Source: a phage
Sequence record: PZ445440.1
Strand: one strand, 5' to 3'
Length of the DNA stretch: 64,000 bases
The notes under the pieces: model-generated
Databases searched by the model: none
Seen by the model: only the letters and a program-made list of their open reading frames with translations
What the model was told of the DNA's origin: nothing
Shown: in pieces, positions 30,066 to 35,270 of the stretch
Layout: every line of letters begins with the position of its first letter
Numbering within the stretch: the first letter of the stretch is position 1
Position numbers and translations under genes: made by a program

Positions 30066-30291
30066 CTCGGTCCCATGATTTGGCCATTAATTCGGACATA
30101 AATTCTTCAATGCGCGTTTCTTTAGATGGACTTTCACTATTAGAGACCGCAAGTTTGTAATCTGCAATAGGACAAAACATATCAAGGTCCATATTAAGAT
30201 CGTCTTTGATTTTTTCTTCTGACACATCTTTATCGTATGTGTACAGATAACTATCACATGATTCTGATTTAATGTAAATTGCTATACTCAT
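30055..30291 (-). CDS. small acidic hypothetical protein
   Basis: ORF track 30055..30306; second ATG has AGGAA upstream. Confidence 0.5.
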   Translation of the reverse strand: MSIAIYIKSESCDSYLYTYDKDVSEEKIKDDLNMDLDMFCPIADYKLAVSNSESPSKETRIEEFMSELMAKSWDRDDE

Positions 30292-30779
30292 CTCAAATTC
30301 CTGCATTCGGTAATAAAACGTTCAACTTCATTATTCTTGGCCTTTATCTTGTCTTTACGTTCCTGTAAACTACTTTTAACAAGATTAATAATGATGCCTA
30401 CAGTACCTCCACCAATGATGCCACCAACAACACTTATGATACTAGATGCTAATAAGATAGCAATAATATCAACAAAACCGAAAGAACTCACCTTAGTACT
30501 AAAAAACCACACTGACGGTACAAATATAATCCATCCTGTTATCCATTGGCACTTATTGAAAAACTTTTCAAGCTCAGCTTGAGTTGTTCGTATTACTTCA
30601 TCGATAGGTTGATATCCATTAATGTATCTGTTCACGATAATACCTGCTGGCTGGTTGATTTTAAATTCTTGGCAAATATGTTTCACTAAGTAGGACGGAC
30701 ATCCTGTCCAATCTACTGAATAATACGAAATACCTTCGTTGCCATCGTCTATATTAGACCAATATGTTTTGTTAATCAT
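30288..30779 (-). CDS. membrane protein (C-terminal TM helices; tail ...FITECR)
   Basis: ORF track; hydrophobic C-terminal half. Confidence 0.65.
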   Translation of the reverse strand: MINKTYWSNIDDGNEGISYYSVDWTGCPSYLVKHICQEFKINQPAGIIVNRYINGYQPIDEVIRTTQAELEKFFNKCQWITGWIIFVPSVWFFSTKVSSFGFVDIIAILLASSIISVVGGIIGGGTVGIIINLVKSSLQERKDKIKAKNNEVERFITECRNLR

Positions 30780-31465
30780 TACCAGCCTTCCATAGGGAAT
30801 TCCAGATAAACTTGGGCATTGACACGAATTTCATTGGTAATCTTTTTAACTCGGTCTGTATTACGAGATACACGTCCGAACCAACGCCATCCGTTACTAA
30901 TTGCACGAGAACCAGTGTGCCATGTTTGCCAATCAAACTGAAGAAGAGTACGGTCTGGAGCTTCCCATTTCTCTAGTTCACCTTTTTCGATTTTTTCGAG
31001 GACTTCTTTGTGCCACTGGCGATAGATAAGTTCGCCATCAGGAATCTGACTGAACTCTGCAGTTCCTGTTGCAAAATGAGTAGGACACACATCAGAGTTA
31101 ACAAGACCAAGAATATGTTCAGAATGGTAACGAGGGTTGTCATAGTCAGGTTGTCCTGCAGTAATAAAGTGTTGACCAACTGGAATATCCGGGCGTGGTA
31201 CATCGTCATGGTGATAACCTGGGATAGCAGGGTACCAACCAGGCATCAGCATGTGGACTCGTGAATCAAATACAACCTGGTCGGTGTTCCAATCATCCGG
31301 CAAGTTCATGATGAAGCTGCGAGTAATAGGACCGCCGTTATTATAAGCAAATTCTAAACTACAGTTAAAGAACATCGGTTCGTTCTTGATTTTATCATTA
31401 GAAATGCTACCGGCAAAACCACCTACTGCACGAGCTTGGCTATTAAACACTTTAGAACTATTCAT
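30779..31465 (-). CDS. hypothetical protein (228 aa, His-rich)
   Basis: ORF track; ATG with GAGGAAAA upstream embedded in the preceding gene's last codons. Confidence 0.7.
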   Translation of the reverse strand: MNSSKVFNSQARAVGGFAGSISNDKIKNEPMFFNCSLEFAYNNGGPITRSFIMNLPDDWNTDQVVFDSRVHMLMPGWYPAIPGYHHDDVPRPDIPVGQHFITAGQPDYDNPRYHSEHILGLVNSDVCPTHFATGTAEFSQIPDGELIYRQWHKEVLEKIEKGELEKWEAPDRTLLQFDWQTWHTGSRAISNGWRWFGRVSRNTDRVKKITNEIRVNAQVYLEFPMEGW

Positions 31466-31466
31466 A

Positions 31467-31772
31467 TTATTTTCCTCGACATTCTTTAATGAAATTTTCT
31501 AGATTGGTAGATTCAATAGCTTTTTTACGAGCTTCTGCGTGTTCTTCTTCGGACAATTTACGTTTATAATTGACCCAGACATTATGGTCTAAACCGGTCG
31601 TGGCATATAATATCAAAGCTCCGACGAATAATAAAAACGGTGATAAAAATATACAACCAGGAACACCATCCATACTGTAAGCCTTTTGTAATACTGCAAC
31701 AGAAAGAGCTGCGTAAAAAAGCGATGCAAATATTGTAAAAAGACCGATTCGGTTGGTTTCGCCTAATTTCAT
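31467..31772 (-). CDS. membrane protein (2 TM; tail ...NFIKECRGK)
   Basis: ORF track; ATG with GAGGAGAA upstream. Confidence 0.65.
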   Translation of the reverse strand: MKLGETNRIGLFTIFASLFYAALSVAVLQKAYSMDGVPGCIFLSPFLLFVGALILYATTGLDHNVWVNYKRKLSEEEHAEARKKAIESTNLENFIKECRGK

Positions 31773-31789
31773 AATATTCTCCTCATGTT

Positions 31790-31832
31790 TTAATAGGACT
31801 ACTATAACATAGCCCTATAATTGTGTAAACAG
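31790..31832 (-). promoter_or_regulatory. early promoter with stem-loop (GTTTACA ... TTATAG in TAGGACTA/TAGCCCTA repeat)
   Basis: Read in sequence. Confidence 0.5.
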
Positions 31833-31842
31833 TTTTGTGAAG

Positions 31843-32799
31843 TTATTTGAAAGGTTTTACCATATGGAAATTTTGTTTGAAACGTTTGACGTAATCGTCG
31901 TGTCCTAAGCTTTGGTACATACTTACTACTTTGCTGTAGTTTTCCCAGGCATACTCACGGAACCAACCAGAGGTGATGCTTGTACAGACCTTTTCCAATG
32001 CCATCATGAAACTGGCTTCAGGGTTAATTTTAAAGTCATTAGGAATTTGAGAACGTTCTAATGCTAGTACACATGATTCTTCGTATACACCGGCCAGTTT
32101 AATCATTTCTGGTAACGATTCGAACTTCTCGCGTGAGGTCATGACTTCAGAACCGTCTTTCATGTAAAACGTATAAGCCGGACGGTCTGTTAGTGCAATG
32201 GCTTCATGAATAGTATCATGGTCATATGTATAGATGTCATCTTTAAAGAACGCACTTTTAGAAGTGTCAAGAACCGGGTGAGCATAGTTCAAAGTTTCTT
32301 TCTGGCGTTTCAGCATAATTTCAGTAAGTTCATCGTTCAGTGTAACACCTTTACCACGAAGATACTGAATATGGTTCATAGTCTTTAAAAAGAATGGATT
32401 ATTTTTCTTGAAACGGTGAGACATCTTAATTGCAAGACATATCTCAGGAGTTGCCCAGTAAAACCCGGTCAAACGGTCTTTAGTCAAATTTTTCTTGGCG
32501 TATTTTAAAAGGTCATAAGAAGACGTGAAATCTTCAGGAGTGAGTTCACCGACTAGTTCACGGACATTAGTGATTGCCGGAACAATATACGCTTCAAAAT
32601 GAGTTTCGCGTCCATTATGGAAGCATTTGAAAACTTGGACATCAGGGTTATCTTGGTGGACATATACACCCATCATTTGATTTTTGAATGCATTCCAAGA
32701 ACATTGGTCCGCAATAAAGTCCCAATCACTATTTTTGATAGCGCTAGAATCAATAAGACCGTGATAGTGAAGTGCACGAGAACCAATAACTAACAACAT
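31843..32799 (-). CDS. hypothetical protein with nucleotidyltransferase-like N-terminal motif (318 aa)
   Basis: IGSRALHYHGLIDSSAIKNSDWDF resembles the GS...D.D signature; ATG with GAGGAAAA upstream. Confidence 0.7.
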   Translation of the reverse strand: MLLVIGSRALHYHGLIDSSAIKNSDWDFIADQCSWNAFKNQMMGVYVHQDNPDVQVFKCFHNGRETHFEAYIVPAITNVRELVGELTPEDFTSSYDLLKYAKKNLTKDRLTGFYWATPEICLAIKMSHRFKKNNPFFLKTMNHIQYLRGKGVTLNDELTEIMLKRQKETLNYAHPVLDTSKSAFFKDDIYTYDHDTIHEAIALTDRPAYTFYMKDGSEVMTSREKFESLPEMIKLAGVYEESCVLALERSQIPNDFKINPEASFMMALEKVCTSITSGWFREYAWENYSKVVSMYQSLGHDDYVKRFKQNFHMVKPFK

Positions 32800-32827
32800 A
32801 ATATTTTCCTCGGATTAATTCATTAAC

Positions 32828-33067
32828 TTAAATTTCACGACATGCGATATCATATTCATCCCAGAGGTCATCATGTGAAGCCTCTACCAATGGAACGATT
32901 GTACCATTTATGTCTTCATTATAAGGGCAAATTGTACAGTGCGCATCTTCGAATCGGATGCCTTTGTGTTCAGATTTTTTATAACGCATATCGAATATCT
33001 TTGCAAACTTTTCACGAGTAATGGTTTTACCAACCACTTTGGTTCCGATACTTTCGTAATAAATCAT
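32828..33067 (-). CDS. hypothetical protein (79 aa, Cys/His-containing)
   Basis: ORF track 32828..33079; second ATG in ATGGAGAACAAAATG leader. Confidence 0.6.
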   Translation of the reverse strand: MIYYESIGTKVVGKTITREKFAKIFDMRYKKSEHKGIRFEDAHCTICPYNEDINGTIVPLVEASHDDLWDEYDIACREI

Positions 33068-33129
33068 TTTGTTCTCCATTTGTTTTGATAGGACTACTAT
33101 AACATAGCCCTATCTTGTTGTAAACTGTT

Positions 33130-33327
33130 TTAGCAAGAATAACTAGATGATACCCAGCCTTGAACAGTGATACTATTGTGGGATAATGAGATCGCGTCCT
33201 GGAGATTCAGACCTGCGTTATCTTCAATCCATAATGTAACTTCTTCGCGTTCTTCTGTTGCAATTTGGAACAGGTTTTCTAGAGCAGCTACTGCGGTACG
33301 TACAGCACAATCTAATTCACGAGACAT
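33130..33327 (-). CDS. small acidic protein, paralog family member (C-terminus GWVSSSYSC)
   Basis: ORF track; AAGGAAA upstream. Confidence 0.6.
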   Translation of the reverse strand: MSRELDCAVRTAVAALENLFQIATEEREEVTLWIEDNAGLNLQDAISLSHNSITVQGWVSSSYSC

Positions 33328-33336
33328 ATGGTTTCC

Positions 33337-33609
33337 TTAGCAAGTGTGAGAAGATGCAACCCAACCGCCATCTTCAAGGCTCAGGTTGTAGTCGTATTGG
33401 TAAACGTCAGCCCATTCAGCATAGCCGTTTTTTGTACAACGTTCAAGATCGGCTTTAAGATGTCCGGGTGAATGATAGGTTCCACCCATACCATAAGCTG
33501 GATACAAGTCGAATGTTGTGTTTTGTTTATCAGCAATTTCTTTGGCAGCCTCAATAGCTGCATAGATTTTTGCTACAGCTTCGGCCAGTTCGGTTTGTTC
33601 TTTAGACAT
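33337..33609 (-). CDS. small acidic protein, paralog family member (C-terminus GGWVASSHTC)
   Basis: ORF track; AAGGAA upstream. Confidence 0.6.
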   Translation of the reverse strand: MSKEQTELAEAVAKIYAAIEAAKEIADKQNTTFDLYPAYGMGGTYHSPGHLKADLERCTKNGYAEWADVYQYDYNLSLEDGGWVASSHTC

Positions 33610-33618
33610 AATGATTCC

Positions 33619-33924
33619 TTAGCACAACGCAGAAGACGAAACCCAAGCACCTTCAGTAATAACGTAACCATTACCTTCACGCTTAACATCACCACCATTA
33701 TTTTCAATTTCATCTTTCATCCACTGGGATACGATTTCACCCTTAGGATAATAAGTACGTCCGCTACCATAATCACCTACAGAAAATGATACGGCATATT
33801 GGTCTGCGATCTTTGTTGCTTCTTCTTCGATACGTTCAGCTTGATTCAGAAGTTTATAAATTGCATCTGAAGCGGATTTGGCATCATTAAACTCTGGTAC
33901 TTTAATTTCAATAATCTTACTCAT
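33619..33924 (-). CDS. small acidic protein, paralog family member (C-terminus GAWVSSSALC)
   Basis: ORF track; ATGA overlap with upstream gene. Confidence 0.6.
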   Translation of the reverse strand: MSKIIEIKVPEFNDAKSASDAIYKLLNQAERIEEEATKIADQYAVSFSVGDYGSGRTYYPKGEIVSQWMKDEIENNGGDVKREGNGYVITEGAWVSSSALC

Positions 33925-34280
33925 TTTCTACATTCCTTAATAAAGTTTTCGATTGTTTCATTTTCACGTTTAGCTAGAAGTTCATTATAACTAATCATTT
34001 GAGAAGCGTAAACCTTTTTATTTTTCTTGTTATGGTTTATAAAATCGTAGTAAAAATAGACTACAGTACAAAATGATGCGATGGATGCAAAGGCTTGGGT
34101 ATACCGTAAGTCCTGCCATTGGTCTGTGAATCCACCGGTATTCCCTATAAATCCTAACACAACTCCGTCAATAAGAAATCCAACTAATCCAAAGGCAAAT
34201 CCCATGCCAATACTCATAATAAAAATTAAAATATTCTCACCAAGAGAAGGCCATACGGTTAAGAGTTGAGGCTTTTGCAT
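33921..34280 (-). CDS. membrane protein (tail ...ENFIKECRK)
   Basis: ORF track; hydrophobic helices. Confidence 0.65.
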   Translation of the reverse strand: MQKPQLLTVWPSLGENILIFIMSIGMGFAFGLVGFLIDGVVLGFIGNTGGFTDQWQDLRYTQAFASIASFCTVVYFYYDFINHNKKNKKVYASQMISYNELLAKRENETIENFIKECRK

Positions 34281-34654
34281 CTTATTTCCTTAACGAATTC
34301 CATAGCTTCTTCATATTCATACTTTTTAACAGCTTCATCATACTGAGCTTGGGCTTTTGCGCACTGAACTTTCCACTCGCGAACTCGAGCTCTGTGATGA
34401 CGGCCTTGGTGCCAATATCCTGCCCAATTAATAGGCATTAATAAAAACGGTACAATAAGTGGTGCGACGAACATTAATGAAAACGCTGCATCAGACGATA
34501 TAACTTTATTGGAATCTAAAATAGCTCCTATAATCATAAAGATTAAAAATGCTAAAGCTAAAATAGGGCCAAATAGTACTTCGTTTGGGATTAATTTACG
34601 TTTGTATTCGTATGCCCAGGGCTTAATTGGCATGTACAGGGTTGGCTTTGACAT
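34259..34654 (-). CDS. membrane protein (start uncertain)
   Basis: ORF track 34259..34684 begins with TTG; internal ATGs at 34654 or 34633. Confidence 0.5.
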   Translation of the reverse strand: MSKPTLYMPIKPWAYEYKRKLIPNEVLFGPILALAFLIFMIIGAILDSNKVISSDAAFSLMFVAPLIVPFLLMPINWAGYWHQGRHHRARVREWKVQCAKAQAQYDEAVKKYEYEEAMEFVKEIRCKSLNS

Positions 34655-35225
34655 ATTCTCTACATTCCATAATAAATTGCTCAAGGATTAAATTGTTAGT
34701 GAAATTAGGACTAACAACCATAGTTTCATAAAGCGCATCAATAGCACTTAAAGCATCAACTCTTTTAAGCAAAGGCTTGCCTTCATACATAGTTTCAGAA
34801 TCGACGATTAACGTAAAGTAATATTTTTTATTATCGACTAGAACTTCTGTGTCGATATAAAACATATTAGACCTCAGAAGCTTATCTCTAAAACCATAAT
34901 AATCTTCTGAACGTTCGCTGATATATTCCCATTCAGTGTTTAAACAACAAACAGACCACGTAGGAGCAACGAAATCAGTGAATCTAATATCATGGTCTGC
35001 AACTAGTTTAGCAATAGCTCCGATATCATGAATCATAATACCTGGGGCTAATAAAGATTTTCTGCTATGGCTAGCCGTTTTCTCAGTGGTCTCATAAGAA
35101 GCCGACCAGTACCATTTACGTCCGGTTGCAACATATCGTAATGAATCAACTAAAGACGTAGGTGGATTTACCTTATCTCGGAACTCTTCGAACATTGAGT
35201 CAATATCATTATTTTGGTTTCGCAT
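34623..35225 (-). CDS. hypothetical protein (200 aa; tail ...QFIMECREYV)
   Basis: ORF track 34623..35246; ATG 35225 with AGGAG upstream. Confidence 0.65.
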   Translation of the reverse strand: MRNQNNDIDSMFEEFRDKVNPPTSLVDSLRYVATGRKWYWSASYETTEKTASHSRKSLLAPGIMIHDIGAIAKLVADHDIRFTDFVAPTWSVCCLNTEWEYISERSEDYYGFRDKLLRSNMFYIDTEVLVDNKKYYFTLIVDSETMYEGKPLLKRVDALSAIDALYETMVVSPNFTNNLILEQFIMECREYVKANPVHAN

Positions 35226-35242: not shown

Positions 35243-35270
35243 CCAAAAGGAGGACCGGAGTCCTCCGTAT
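35243..35270 (-). terminator. intrinsic terminator (GGAGGAC-tccg-GTCCTCC + TTTT)
   Basis: Perfect 7-bp stem plus T-run on minus strand. Confidence 0.55.

Follow-up and report, generated by a model that had tools for sequence, protein, structure and literature searches.

Five genes in the early-gene block of an RB69-like phage (sequence record PZ445440.1; the 64,000-nucleotide (nt) stretch analysed is called the window here) encode proteins that end in variants of one short peptide, typified by F-I-K-E-C-R. We consider it likely that these belong to a set of lineage-specific early proteins, mostly small membrane proteins and probably tandem paralogues, with a C-terminal helix motif that is under selection, probably for docking or assembly; the overlap of the tail codons with the Shine-Dalgarno (SD) sequence of the next gene would be incidental, and gene loss through short homology between tails a by-product. 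The block lies on the minus strand, where the window matches Escherichia phage ChristianSchoenbein at 100% identity over 5.4 kb and RB69 and other Mosigvirus genomes at about 96%. Going by the annotations of RB69 and T4, the block runs in the order e.6, a terminator, e.5, e.4, e.3, ORF139 to ORF132 (eight genes without a T4 counterpart), e.2, ORF130, nudE and e.

The five tail carriers, all on the minus strand, are e.5, e.4, e.3, ORF133c and e.2. The e.5 gene (34623–35225; 200 aa, no transmembrane (TM) segment by hydropathy), assigned from its open reading frame (ORF), the RB69 annotation and phrog_2607, ends ...EQFIMECREYVKANPVHAN, with its last 32 nt inside e.4; its tail codons, TTT ATT ATG GAA TGT AGA (F-I-M-E-C-R, 34659–34676), were picked up by pattern search and belong to repeat family D3. 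The e.4 gene (34259–34654; 131 aa, two TM segments by hydropathy, N-terminus MSKPTLYMPIKP, phrog_2604) ends ...MEFVKEIRCKSLNS, with its last 22 nt inside e.3; its tail codons are TTC GTT AAG GAA ATA AGA (F-V-K-E-I-R, 34280–34297), and the Cys codon that follows, TGC, shares TG with the ATG of e.3 (AGATGC). The e.3 gene (33921–34280; 119 aa, a membrane protein with N-terminus MQKPQL, phrog_2330) ends ...IENFIKECRK, encoded by TTT ATT AAG GAA TGT AGA (33927–33944) in the motif itself, and overlaps ORF139 by the 4 nt of an ATGA stop/start. ORF133c (31467–31772; 101 aa, two TM segments, phrog_9798 and, at E 2.8e-4, phrog_2203) ends ...LENFIKECRGK (TTC ATT AAA GAA TGT CGA, 31476–31493), with a gap of 1 nt before ORF132. 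Finally, e.2 (30288–30779; 163 aa, with a soluble N-terminal domain, a membrane segment and a charged helix as predicted, phrog_2203) ends ...VERFITECRNLR (TTT ATT ACC GAA TGC AGG, 30300–30317) and overlaps ORF130 by 4 nt, again as ATGA. All five tails quoted in the first-pass annotation are thus present; the ends it gave for e.4 and e.5 fell near the start of the next gene, and the true ends lie four residues further on in e.4 (...IRCKSLNS) and eight further on in e.5 (...CREYVKANPVHAN). Because e.4 overlaps e.3 by 22 nt and e.5 overlaps e.4 by 32 nt, these extra residues are an out-of-frame reading of the N-terminus of the next gene, a point of caution in annotating both genes.

Read in six frames, the window has 589 stop-to-stop segments of 40 aa or longer. 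They contain ECR four times, in every case at this locus, preceded by F-I-x and at most 11 residues from a stop. The back-translated F-I-x-E-C-R pattern TTYATHNNNGARTGYMG has four matches in the 64 kb, compared with a mean of 0.00 in 100 shuffles, and a chance origin of the recurring tail is excluded. An unbiased repeat search placed the e.2, e.3 and e.5 tails in one 22-nt direct-repeat family, which ranks third in strength among those of the 5.5-kb region, and the e.5 and e.3 tails, 732 nt apart, are 91% identical in DNA. Nucleotide comparison of the junctions showed them to be alike over about 22 nt; because this likeness runs past the 5–6 nt of an SD, the reported similarity of the junctions stands. 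An SD-like element for the next gene, proposed earlier for at least two tails, occurs in all five, with only a weak GGA for e.5 to e.4. In e.3 and e.4, AAGGA lies in the K-E codons (AAG GAA), 9 nt before the ATG of ORF139 and 6 nt before that of e.3, respectively; in ORF133c, the element is GAGGA in the following R-G codons (CGA GGA), not in K-E, 7 nt before the ATG of ORF132; and in e.2, AGGA in the C-R-N codons (TGC AGG AAT) stands 7 nt before the ATG of ORF130.

We compared this locus across T4, RB69, mogra, two Dhakaviruses, 17 viral-contig loci and 28 metagenome loci anchored on NudE, finding that three to seven genes between e.6 and nudE end in the motif in every T4-like lineage collected, over a range of 58–98% NudE identity (T4-type, RB69-type, Dhaka-type, EcS1 (L022), L021 and L163/164/171). 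The tails read KEFVIDCRKIK, KFVKESRCKSQS and EKFVKECREYV... in T4; RFIAECREYA..., EFIKEVRNGTA, TFIKECKS and SFIEECRK in the Dhaka type; DFVESCRK..., FFIDDCRRNKNA, QFIESARKK, VFIKNMRGKHES, MFINQCRRK, DFIKNCRR and NFIKSCRK in L021; EFVKMCRT..., MFIKECKVK, DFIQGCRGSK and DFIKGIRS in EcS1; and EFIKYCRKRVQK, EFIKEVRRK, TWIRSCRK and SWIKEMK in the L163 group. They give the consensus Φ-[E/N]-x-F-[I/V]-x-[E/D]-C-R-[K/R], followed by 0–3 residues or by read-through into the next gene. In a set of 80 distinct tails, gathered with a loose pattern that probably admitted a handful of unrelated proteins, F stands at position 0 in 74/80, I or V at +1 in 76/80, E or D at +3 in 58/80 and C at +4 in 58/80, with a hydrophobic residue at −3 and R or K at +5; the protein usually ends 1–3 residues later. 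A scan of viral contigs for TTTATTAARGAATGYMG gave at least 120 matches, nearly all of them out-of-frame or internal chance occurrences, and true C-terminal tails were confined to T4-like phages among the matches listed. We set aside as unrelated an internal ...ALENFIKECRGLD... that occurs in unrelated phages, in a 115–125-aa protein whose gene stands amid structural-type genes.

The codons of the tail vary. In 57 distinct junction DNAs, Phe is encoded by TTT (47) or TTC (10), Cys by TGT (22) or TGC (24), Arg by AGA (19), AGG (11), CGT (15), CGC (5) or CGA (3), and Ile/Val by ATT, ATC, ATA, GTT or GTG. The SD begins +6, +8, +14 to +17, +23 or +29/30 nt from the Phe codon, and the distance from the Glu codon to the next ATG ranges from 8 to 31 nt. 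Two carriers with a spacer after them have no next-gene SD in their tail codons: one of 102 aa, encoded downstream of nudE in the L163 group, which ends MFIAKCRAK and is followed by a 30-nt spacer with a hairpin, and an EcS1 protein that ends ...EFITYVKK and is followed by an intergenic region. By contrast with these freedoms, the peptide is held. In family alignments across lineages, at 14–53% identity, the tail forms the most conserved columns of each family: the only four invariant columns of the e.2/ORF133-type alignment are F, I, C and R; three of the seven in e.5 (14–46% identity) are F184, C188 and R189; those of the e.3 type are M1, P4 and the tail F; and the tail F, K and R are among the ten of the e.4 type. 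Because the codons are free, the SD offset varies, some carriers have no SD in the tail and the tail residues are the most conserved, the sequence comparisons place selection on the peptide.

The 102-aa protein of the L163 group is predicted to be soluble; it occurs in L163, L164 and L171 (10455–10760) and in L162 (1033–1338), a lineage at 62% NudE identity, and ends ...CSIDMFIAKCRAK. The tail is therefore limited neither to the e.6–nudE interval nor to membrane proteins. A 109-aa Dhakavirus protein in an inserted block (L004 4203–4532, with homologues in L005, L009, L011 and L013–L016) ends ...DKLFLEYCRSDVQL, a sequence that may be distantly related to the tail or may resemble it by chance. 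Within a genome, the tail Arg codon tends to match (CGT/CGC in three Dhaka tails, AGA in RB69-type e.5, e.4 and e.3), and the +1 residue is Val in three of the four T4 tails and Ile in all four Dhaka tails; gene conversion between the tails could lie behind such agreement, as could their joint adaptation to a single partner.

We examined the carriers for features other than the tail. By hydropathy, e.4 and ORF133c have two membrane segments, e.3 at least one, the C-terminal half of e.2 one or two, and e.5 none. In e.4, ORF133c and e.2, a charged stretch of 40–56 residues follows the last membrane-scoring segment and ends in the tail; the charged stretch of e.3 also ends in the tail and is shorter if a weaker second segment is counted. 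A layout of hydrophobic segments, charged stretch and tail is thus common to e.4, e.3, ORF133c and the C-terminal half of e.2, and by the positive-inside rule the charged stretch of these four proteins is probably cytoplasmic. An AlphaFold2 model of e.3, built on an alignment of three window paralogues only and used solely for secondary structure, shows two long helices; the tail ends the second (residues 54–118), which is the best-scored block (pLDDT 78; mean 65). The model lends weak support to a helical tail. Hydrophobic residues at −3, 0, +1 and +4 have the spacing of one face of an alpha-helix. The AlphaFold2 model of e.5, from a seven-sequence alignment, was judged unusable (mean pLDDT 39, pTM 0.35).

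The same four membrane proteins may also resemble one another outside the tail. The e.2 protein matches the phrog_2203 profile over its full length (E 1.6e-54), and residues 14–99 of ORF133c match positions 85–165 of that profile, the C-terminal half of e.2, at the E-value given above. Full-length profile comparison with hhalign, on shallow alignments, gave 83–92% probability for e2-ORF133 (91.5% over 61 columns), e3-e4 (87.7%), e3-L21a (92.5% over 94 columns), e4-L21b and ORF133-L21a; with the tails cut, four pairs remained at 64–83% and the rest fell below 50%. Proteins of the e.3 and e.4 types also have an N-terminal M-x-KP motif in common. These similarities make e.4, e.3, ORF133c and e.2 most likely diverged tandem paralogues, whereas e.5, which hhalign aligned to the other carriers over 10–13 tail columns only, is by sequence a predicted soluble protein with only the tail in common. 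The earlier description of five otherwise different proteins therefore holds only in part, the other four looking like paralogues.

We built a profile from the four membrane proteins of the window and ran it exhaustively with HMMER against 1.84 billion proteins; the nine that it found all come from T4-like phages, so that, to the extent that sequence can reveal it, the family is restricted to this phage lineage. Homologue sets were shallow for both e.3 (three near-identical proteins in a word-indexed search) and e.5 (eight proteins when an e.5 alignment was the query). None of the five tail proteins reached the curated cut-off of any family in the local copy of Pfam, and PHROGs labels e.2 as 'membrane protein' and the other carriers as unknown. 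Literature searches on e.2–e.5 found nothing relevant; the motif and family are apparently undescribed and of an ordinary kind. Three relatives of e.5 (P0005, P0010 and P0011) bear a precomputed PF26876.1 tag, a family that lies outside the local Pfam copy and is given here by accession. A 60-aa metagenomic protein, P0018, joins N- and C-terminal pieces of e.3 to the C-terminus of e.4 (...RENETIE|AVKKYEYEEAMEFVKEIRCKSLN) and on its sequence is best read as a further case, from an environmental assembly, in which these paralogues were rearranged.

We mapped insertions and deletions (indels) between close relatives and between lineages, finding that the tails and the SD-ATG junctions are recurrent deletion end points. 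In JM17 (L027), a 732-bp deletion from window position 34676 to 33945 removes e.4 and e.3 at a 17/18-nt repeat, with its left end point in the e.5 tail (TTTATTATGGAATGTAGA) and its right end point in the e.3 tail (TTTATTAAGGAATGTAGA); the product is an e.5 body with a FIKECRK tail directly before the ATG of ORF139. This deletion is unique in the phage collection, the junction searches for JM17 and AV117 having counted single-piece matches only, with pieces up to about 545 nt apart otherwise joined. In Yersinia phage PST, L019 and at least nine other T4-type phages without e.2, the crossover lies inside TGCAGGAAA of the e.3 and e.2 tails, so that e.3 of the PST group, its upstream part joined to the e.2 tail, ends ...GATTGCAGGAAATTAAAATGA and is followed by nudE. 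JS98, IME08, IME341 and other Dhakaviruses lack e.4 through an ATG-to-ATG removal between GAGGTTCAAAATG and GAGGTTCGTAATG; their e.5 ends ...AAAGAGGTTCAAAATGGAACGGCCTAG, the e.5/e.4 junction being fused to the e.4/e.3 junction, and the deletion repeat in IME341 and JS98 is GAGGTTC..AATG. AV117 and AV112 lack ORF130 through a 226-bp deletion that runs from a GAGATGA just downstream of the e.2 tail codons, its left end point, to a GAGATGA at the ORF130/nudE junction. In all four events, both end points lie in a repeat and one copy, sometimes chimeric, is left, as in deletion between direct repeats.

Other indels at this locus avoid the tails. In phiE142 and LF82-16, a complex internal deletion in e.3 keeps the tail and SD; LF82-16 has also lost 90 bp of e.2, in frame, between repeats of 7 nt. 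The RB69/Dhaka-specific block carries no tail at its right edge, ORF132 to e.2. Among the mapped relatives, we found no foreign gene inserted or exchanged between two tails, only losses. By symmetry, tails and SD-ATG junctions are plausible duplication points as well, which fits the 0–3 copies per subfamily. The JM17 e.5 gene has in addition lost 1 nt in an A-run (at about 780–800 of L027), which shifts the frame; the e.5/e.3-tail fusion may therefore be a pseudogene, unless the missing nucleotide is a sequencing artefact.

The explanation we prefer would join these observations as follows. The tail would be the C-terminal motif of early proteins specific to T4-like phages and encoded side by side between e.6 and nudE, forming a docking or assembly helix through which the carriers bind each other or a common partner, as the residue spacing suggests. 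The genes are packed in the T4 style, each start codon lying inside or just after the gene before it, and the SD of the next gene would fall in or near the tail codons because of this packing; the SD overlap would be a result of packing and not what keeps the tail conserved. With one peptide encoded repeatedly, in a single orientation and over no more than a few kb, 10–22-nt direct repeats would arise, and short-homology recombination between tail repeats, or between similar SD-ATG junctions, would remove the genes between them without breaking frames. The same recombination presumably also duplicates genes, and would in this way give rise to the copy-number differences among related phages.

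The closest precedent for repeats at gene boundaries in these phages is the promoter-early stem-loop (PeSL) cassette of T4-type phages, an intergenic early promoter with a stem-loop that has been proposed to move ORFans (Arbiol et al. 2010, PMC2839356; Comeau et al. 2014, PMC4122927) and whose promoter in the T4/PST group reads TTTACW-N17-TAYWAT (PMC4122927). Like PeSLs, the tails are short repeats at gene boundaries in variable T4-like regions, with gene gain or loss mapping to repeats and viable products favoured. The indel end points of JM17, the PST group, the JS98 group and AV117/AV112 fall at such repeats, a resemblance in function only. Unlike PeSLs, which are intergenic, all five tails are coding and make up the last codons of ORFs; they are conserved as peptide and not as DNA, and are so far tied to deletions only. 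None of the promoter-like sites listed for the two strands places a hexamer in the codons of the tail motif, and a terminator/hairpin scan found no stem-loop at the tails, the nearest being at 35266–35249, after e.6. TTTACA-N17-TATAGT with an extended TG occurs on the minus strand only at 33124–33096 and 31829–31801, both in intergenic repeats. These belong to an 89-nt intergenic direct repeat (33043–33131 and 31748–31836, 75% identity) that looks PeSL-like because it combines a T4-early-type promoter with an imperfect palindrome (ATAGGGCTATGTTATAGTAGTCCTAT). The second copy is interrupted at exactly window position 31818 in SHSML-52-1, AV117 and many other Mosigviruses, where an insertion of 269 bp carries a single gene of 66 aa.

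T-even adhesin genes offer a second comparison: exchanges reportedly tend to fall in or near conserved peptide motifs, which in gp38 are glycine-rich (Trojet et al. 2011, PMC3157838, citing Tetart 1996, 1998). There, as here, a peptide motif conserved for the protein also supplies short DNA homology for joining divergent segments; the adhesin motifs lie inside one gene and serve host-range exchange, whereas the tails lie at the 3′ ends of separate genes and whole genes are removed. Compact phage operons such as those of T4 use translational coupling with overlapping stop and start signals. The tails resemble these in placing the SD of the next gene within the last upstream codons, with ATGA or longer overlaps, and an SD-like sequence lies 5–11 nt before the next ATG inside the upstream ORF (the weak GGA in the case of e.5 to e.4). 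Coupling, which is itself a prediction here, accounts for the SD in the tail but not for the conserved F, I/V, C and R or for the tails without an SD. Deletion between short direct repeats reportedly goes back to the classical T4 rII studies; the events described above likewise have end points in 7–18-nt repeats, keep one copy and need no special element. The difference is that here peptide selection would keep the repeats, in phase with gene boundaries, so that products are in frame and recur in nature. In polymorphic toxin genes, demarcating motifs such as VENN in CdiA border variable modules. The tail is also a short conserved peptide at the border of a variable module, with coding DNA usable for homologous exchange, but toxin/immunity logic and module replacement are not seen here, and the motif stands at the extreme C-terminus, not before a variable domain.

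The conservation might instead belong to the DNA. The first-pass annotation took the junctions to be cassette boundaries used for gene shuffling, and gene content indeed changes exactly at the junctions in relatives. On a fuller form of this model, the junctions would be linkers kept for excision, insertion and shuffling, a coding version of the PeSL. That the tails form a 22-nt direct-repeat family, that four clean deletions in natural isolates end at the junctions, that the e.5 and e.3 tails agree in all synonymous codon choices and that the RB69/Dhaka-specific block starts exactly after the e.3 tail are all as such a model would predict. The eight-residue conservation, however, is neither explained by nor kept for recombination or the SD: the peptide is fixed, yet Arg is written with five codons and Cys and Phe with two each, and most pairs of tails have no exact run longer than about 10 nt. 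The changes seen at the junctions are all deletions, which at short direct repeats require no dedicated element, with no foreign gene found between two tails; the ORF132–e.2 edge of the block has no tail, and other indels fall at the promoter repeat or at unrelated 7-nt repeats. We therefore regard conservation of the junctions as cassette boundaries as improbable. Even less probable, and to our minds the least probable of the readings considered, is that the codons are an initiation or coupling element for the downstream gene (an A/U-rich enhancer, SD and spacer), with the peptide as by-product. Such an element would suit the SD-like sequence in five of five tails, the overlap of four of the five gene pairs, the use of AAG-GAA (K-E) as the T4-type SD AAGGA in e.3, e.4 and T4 e.5, and the out-of-frame ATG that GAA-TGY always holds. 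Yet the SD starts anywhere from +6 to +30 nt along the motif, and conservation is highest at F, I/V, C and R, all of them outside the SD. The third positions of the codons differ from tail to tail, and Arg is encoded now by the AGR and now by the CGN family. Some tails precede a 30-nt spacer and hairpin before the next SD, or an intergenic region, and neighbours in the same operon that have no tail carry their SD past the stop, as in TGCTAAGGAA...ATG after ORF139 and ORF137. Two other causes were considered and dropped: a RegA/RegB-type RNA site, there being no conserved GGAG, and a pause at rare Arg codons, 20 of the 57 distinct junctions using CGT/CGC, which are common codons in E. coli.

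Deletions of the JM17 kind could also have spread the tail, by grafting one ancestral copy onto unrelated upstream genes. Products of this kind exist: the JM17 e.5 body now carries the e.3 tail FIKECRK, the e.3 body of L019 and PST has an e.2-type tail (CRKLK) and IME341 e.5 has the e.4 tail end NGTA, and both e.5 and the 102-aa L163 protein are like the other carriers only in the tail. Fusion would supply the origin of the tail on some carriers but not its deep conservation in every family, and the membrane carriers are alike in architecture, in the N-terminal motif and, weakly, over their whole length. As the whole explanation we find it very unlikely; as a secondary mechanism it is compatible with a selected C-terminal motif on paralogous early proteins, the reading we favour.

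Several points weigh against that reading in turn. We infer the docking helix from residue spacing and from the low-confidence e.3 model with its mean pLDDT of 65, and whole-length paralogy draws moderate support from shallow alignments, with most pairs below 50% without their tails. Some carriers, e.5 in particular, may have gained the tail by fusion, as JM17 e.5 did. In the window, each of the five residues common to the e.5 and e.3 tails has the same codon in both, for which we estimate a chance near 0.02, roughly and from typical codon frequencies; this suggests recent homogenisation or an added constraint at the DNA or RNA level. Where the K-E codons are themselves the SD, by our count in three of the five junctions, those after e.3 and e.4 among them, the SD may help to keep K-E, and e.4-type tails lack Cys at the usual position.

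If the tail is nonetheless a selected peptide, it would have consequences for both the proteins and the genome. The e.2 to e.5 genes are kept in the T4-like coliphages sampled, and the shared tail would be a first handle on them, predicting a common partner or complex. It would also be a natural example of a peptide motif that is kept for protein reasons and also sets the sites of gene loss in a variable region, complementing the promoter-based PeSL. A bolder version, which we find doubtful, has the tail as a docking or assembly peptide that plugs three to seven early proteins per T4-like phage, soluble ones as well as membrane-anchored ones, into one partner, or bundles their C-terminal helices, perhaps with the Cys as an inter-subunit metal or redox site. 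Since one peptide closes every gene of the set in a single orientation, the phage would also have a built-in way to drop, duplicate or re-head members while docking is preserved. If true, host-takeover proteins would be organised by a module system that works at the protein and the DNA level at once.

The genes around the carriers show further features of packing and recurrence. Because a strong hairpin with a T-run (GGAGGACTCCGGTCCTCC TTTT) stands between e.6 and e.5 at 35249–35266, the genes from e.5 to ORF136 overlap or lie 9 nt apart, and the next strong minus-strand matches to an early-type promoter after e.5 are the two PeSL-like sites, e.5 to ORF136 probably form one tightly packed unit; a weaker promoter match lies inside e.3 (34012–33984). 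Within this unit is a second recurrent C-terminal tail, G-x-W-V-[S/A]-S-S-x-x-C and then stop, at the ends of three tandem small acidic proteins on the minus strand: ORF139 (33619–33924, GAWVSSSALC), ORF137 (33337–33609, GGWVASSHTC) and ORF136 (33130–33327, QGWVSSSYSC). The ORF139 and ORF137 tails are followed by TAAGGAA...ATG of the next gene, and the tail has five copies in Dhakaviruses and three in L021 (GVWISSSEMC, SIWQASSC and EDWASSSYSC). As judged from sequence, a terminal Cys after a Ser-rich stretch could mark a modified peptide or protein. Downstream of these three genes lie a DUF7277/DUF7275 protein (31843–32799) and ORF132 (30779–31465, 228 aa), which one record annotates as a 2OG-Fe(II) oxygenase; the whole block is absent from T4. 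Searches of PDB sequences with the neighbours ORF132 and ORF134 gave no significant match.

Three annotations near the right end of the locus deserve comment. The T4 reference e.2 (L003, NC_000866, 3491–3961; 102 aa) is a frameshifted version of the 162-aa e.2 protein of relatives (L017 9519–10007): −1 and +1 frameshifts about 80 nt apart bring a stop into frame, and the coding sequence for the tail, NNFITECRKLK, is intact just upstream of nudE. Either the reference gene is a pseudogene or its sequence contains an old error. For T4 NudE, the annotated start is the out-of-frame ATG of the E-C codons (MQEIKMKT...), and a second ATG has a better SD (GGAA, 7 nt upstream). Likewise, for ORF130 in the window, the ORF list gives a start at 30306 (MQEFEMSIA...), and the likely start is at 30291.

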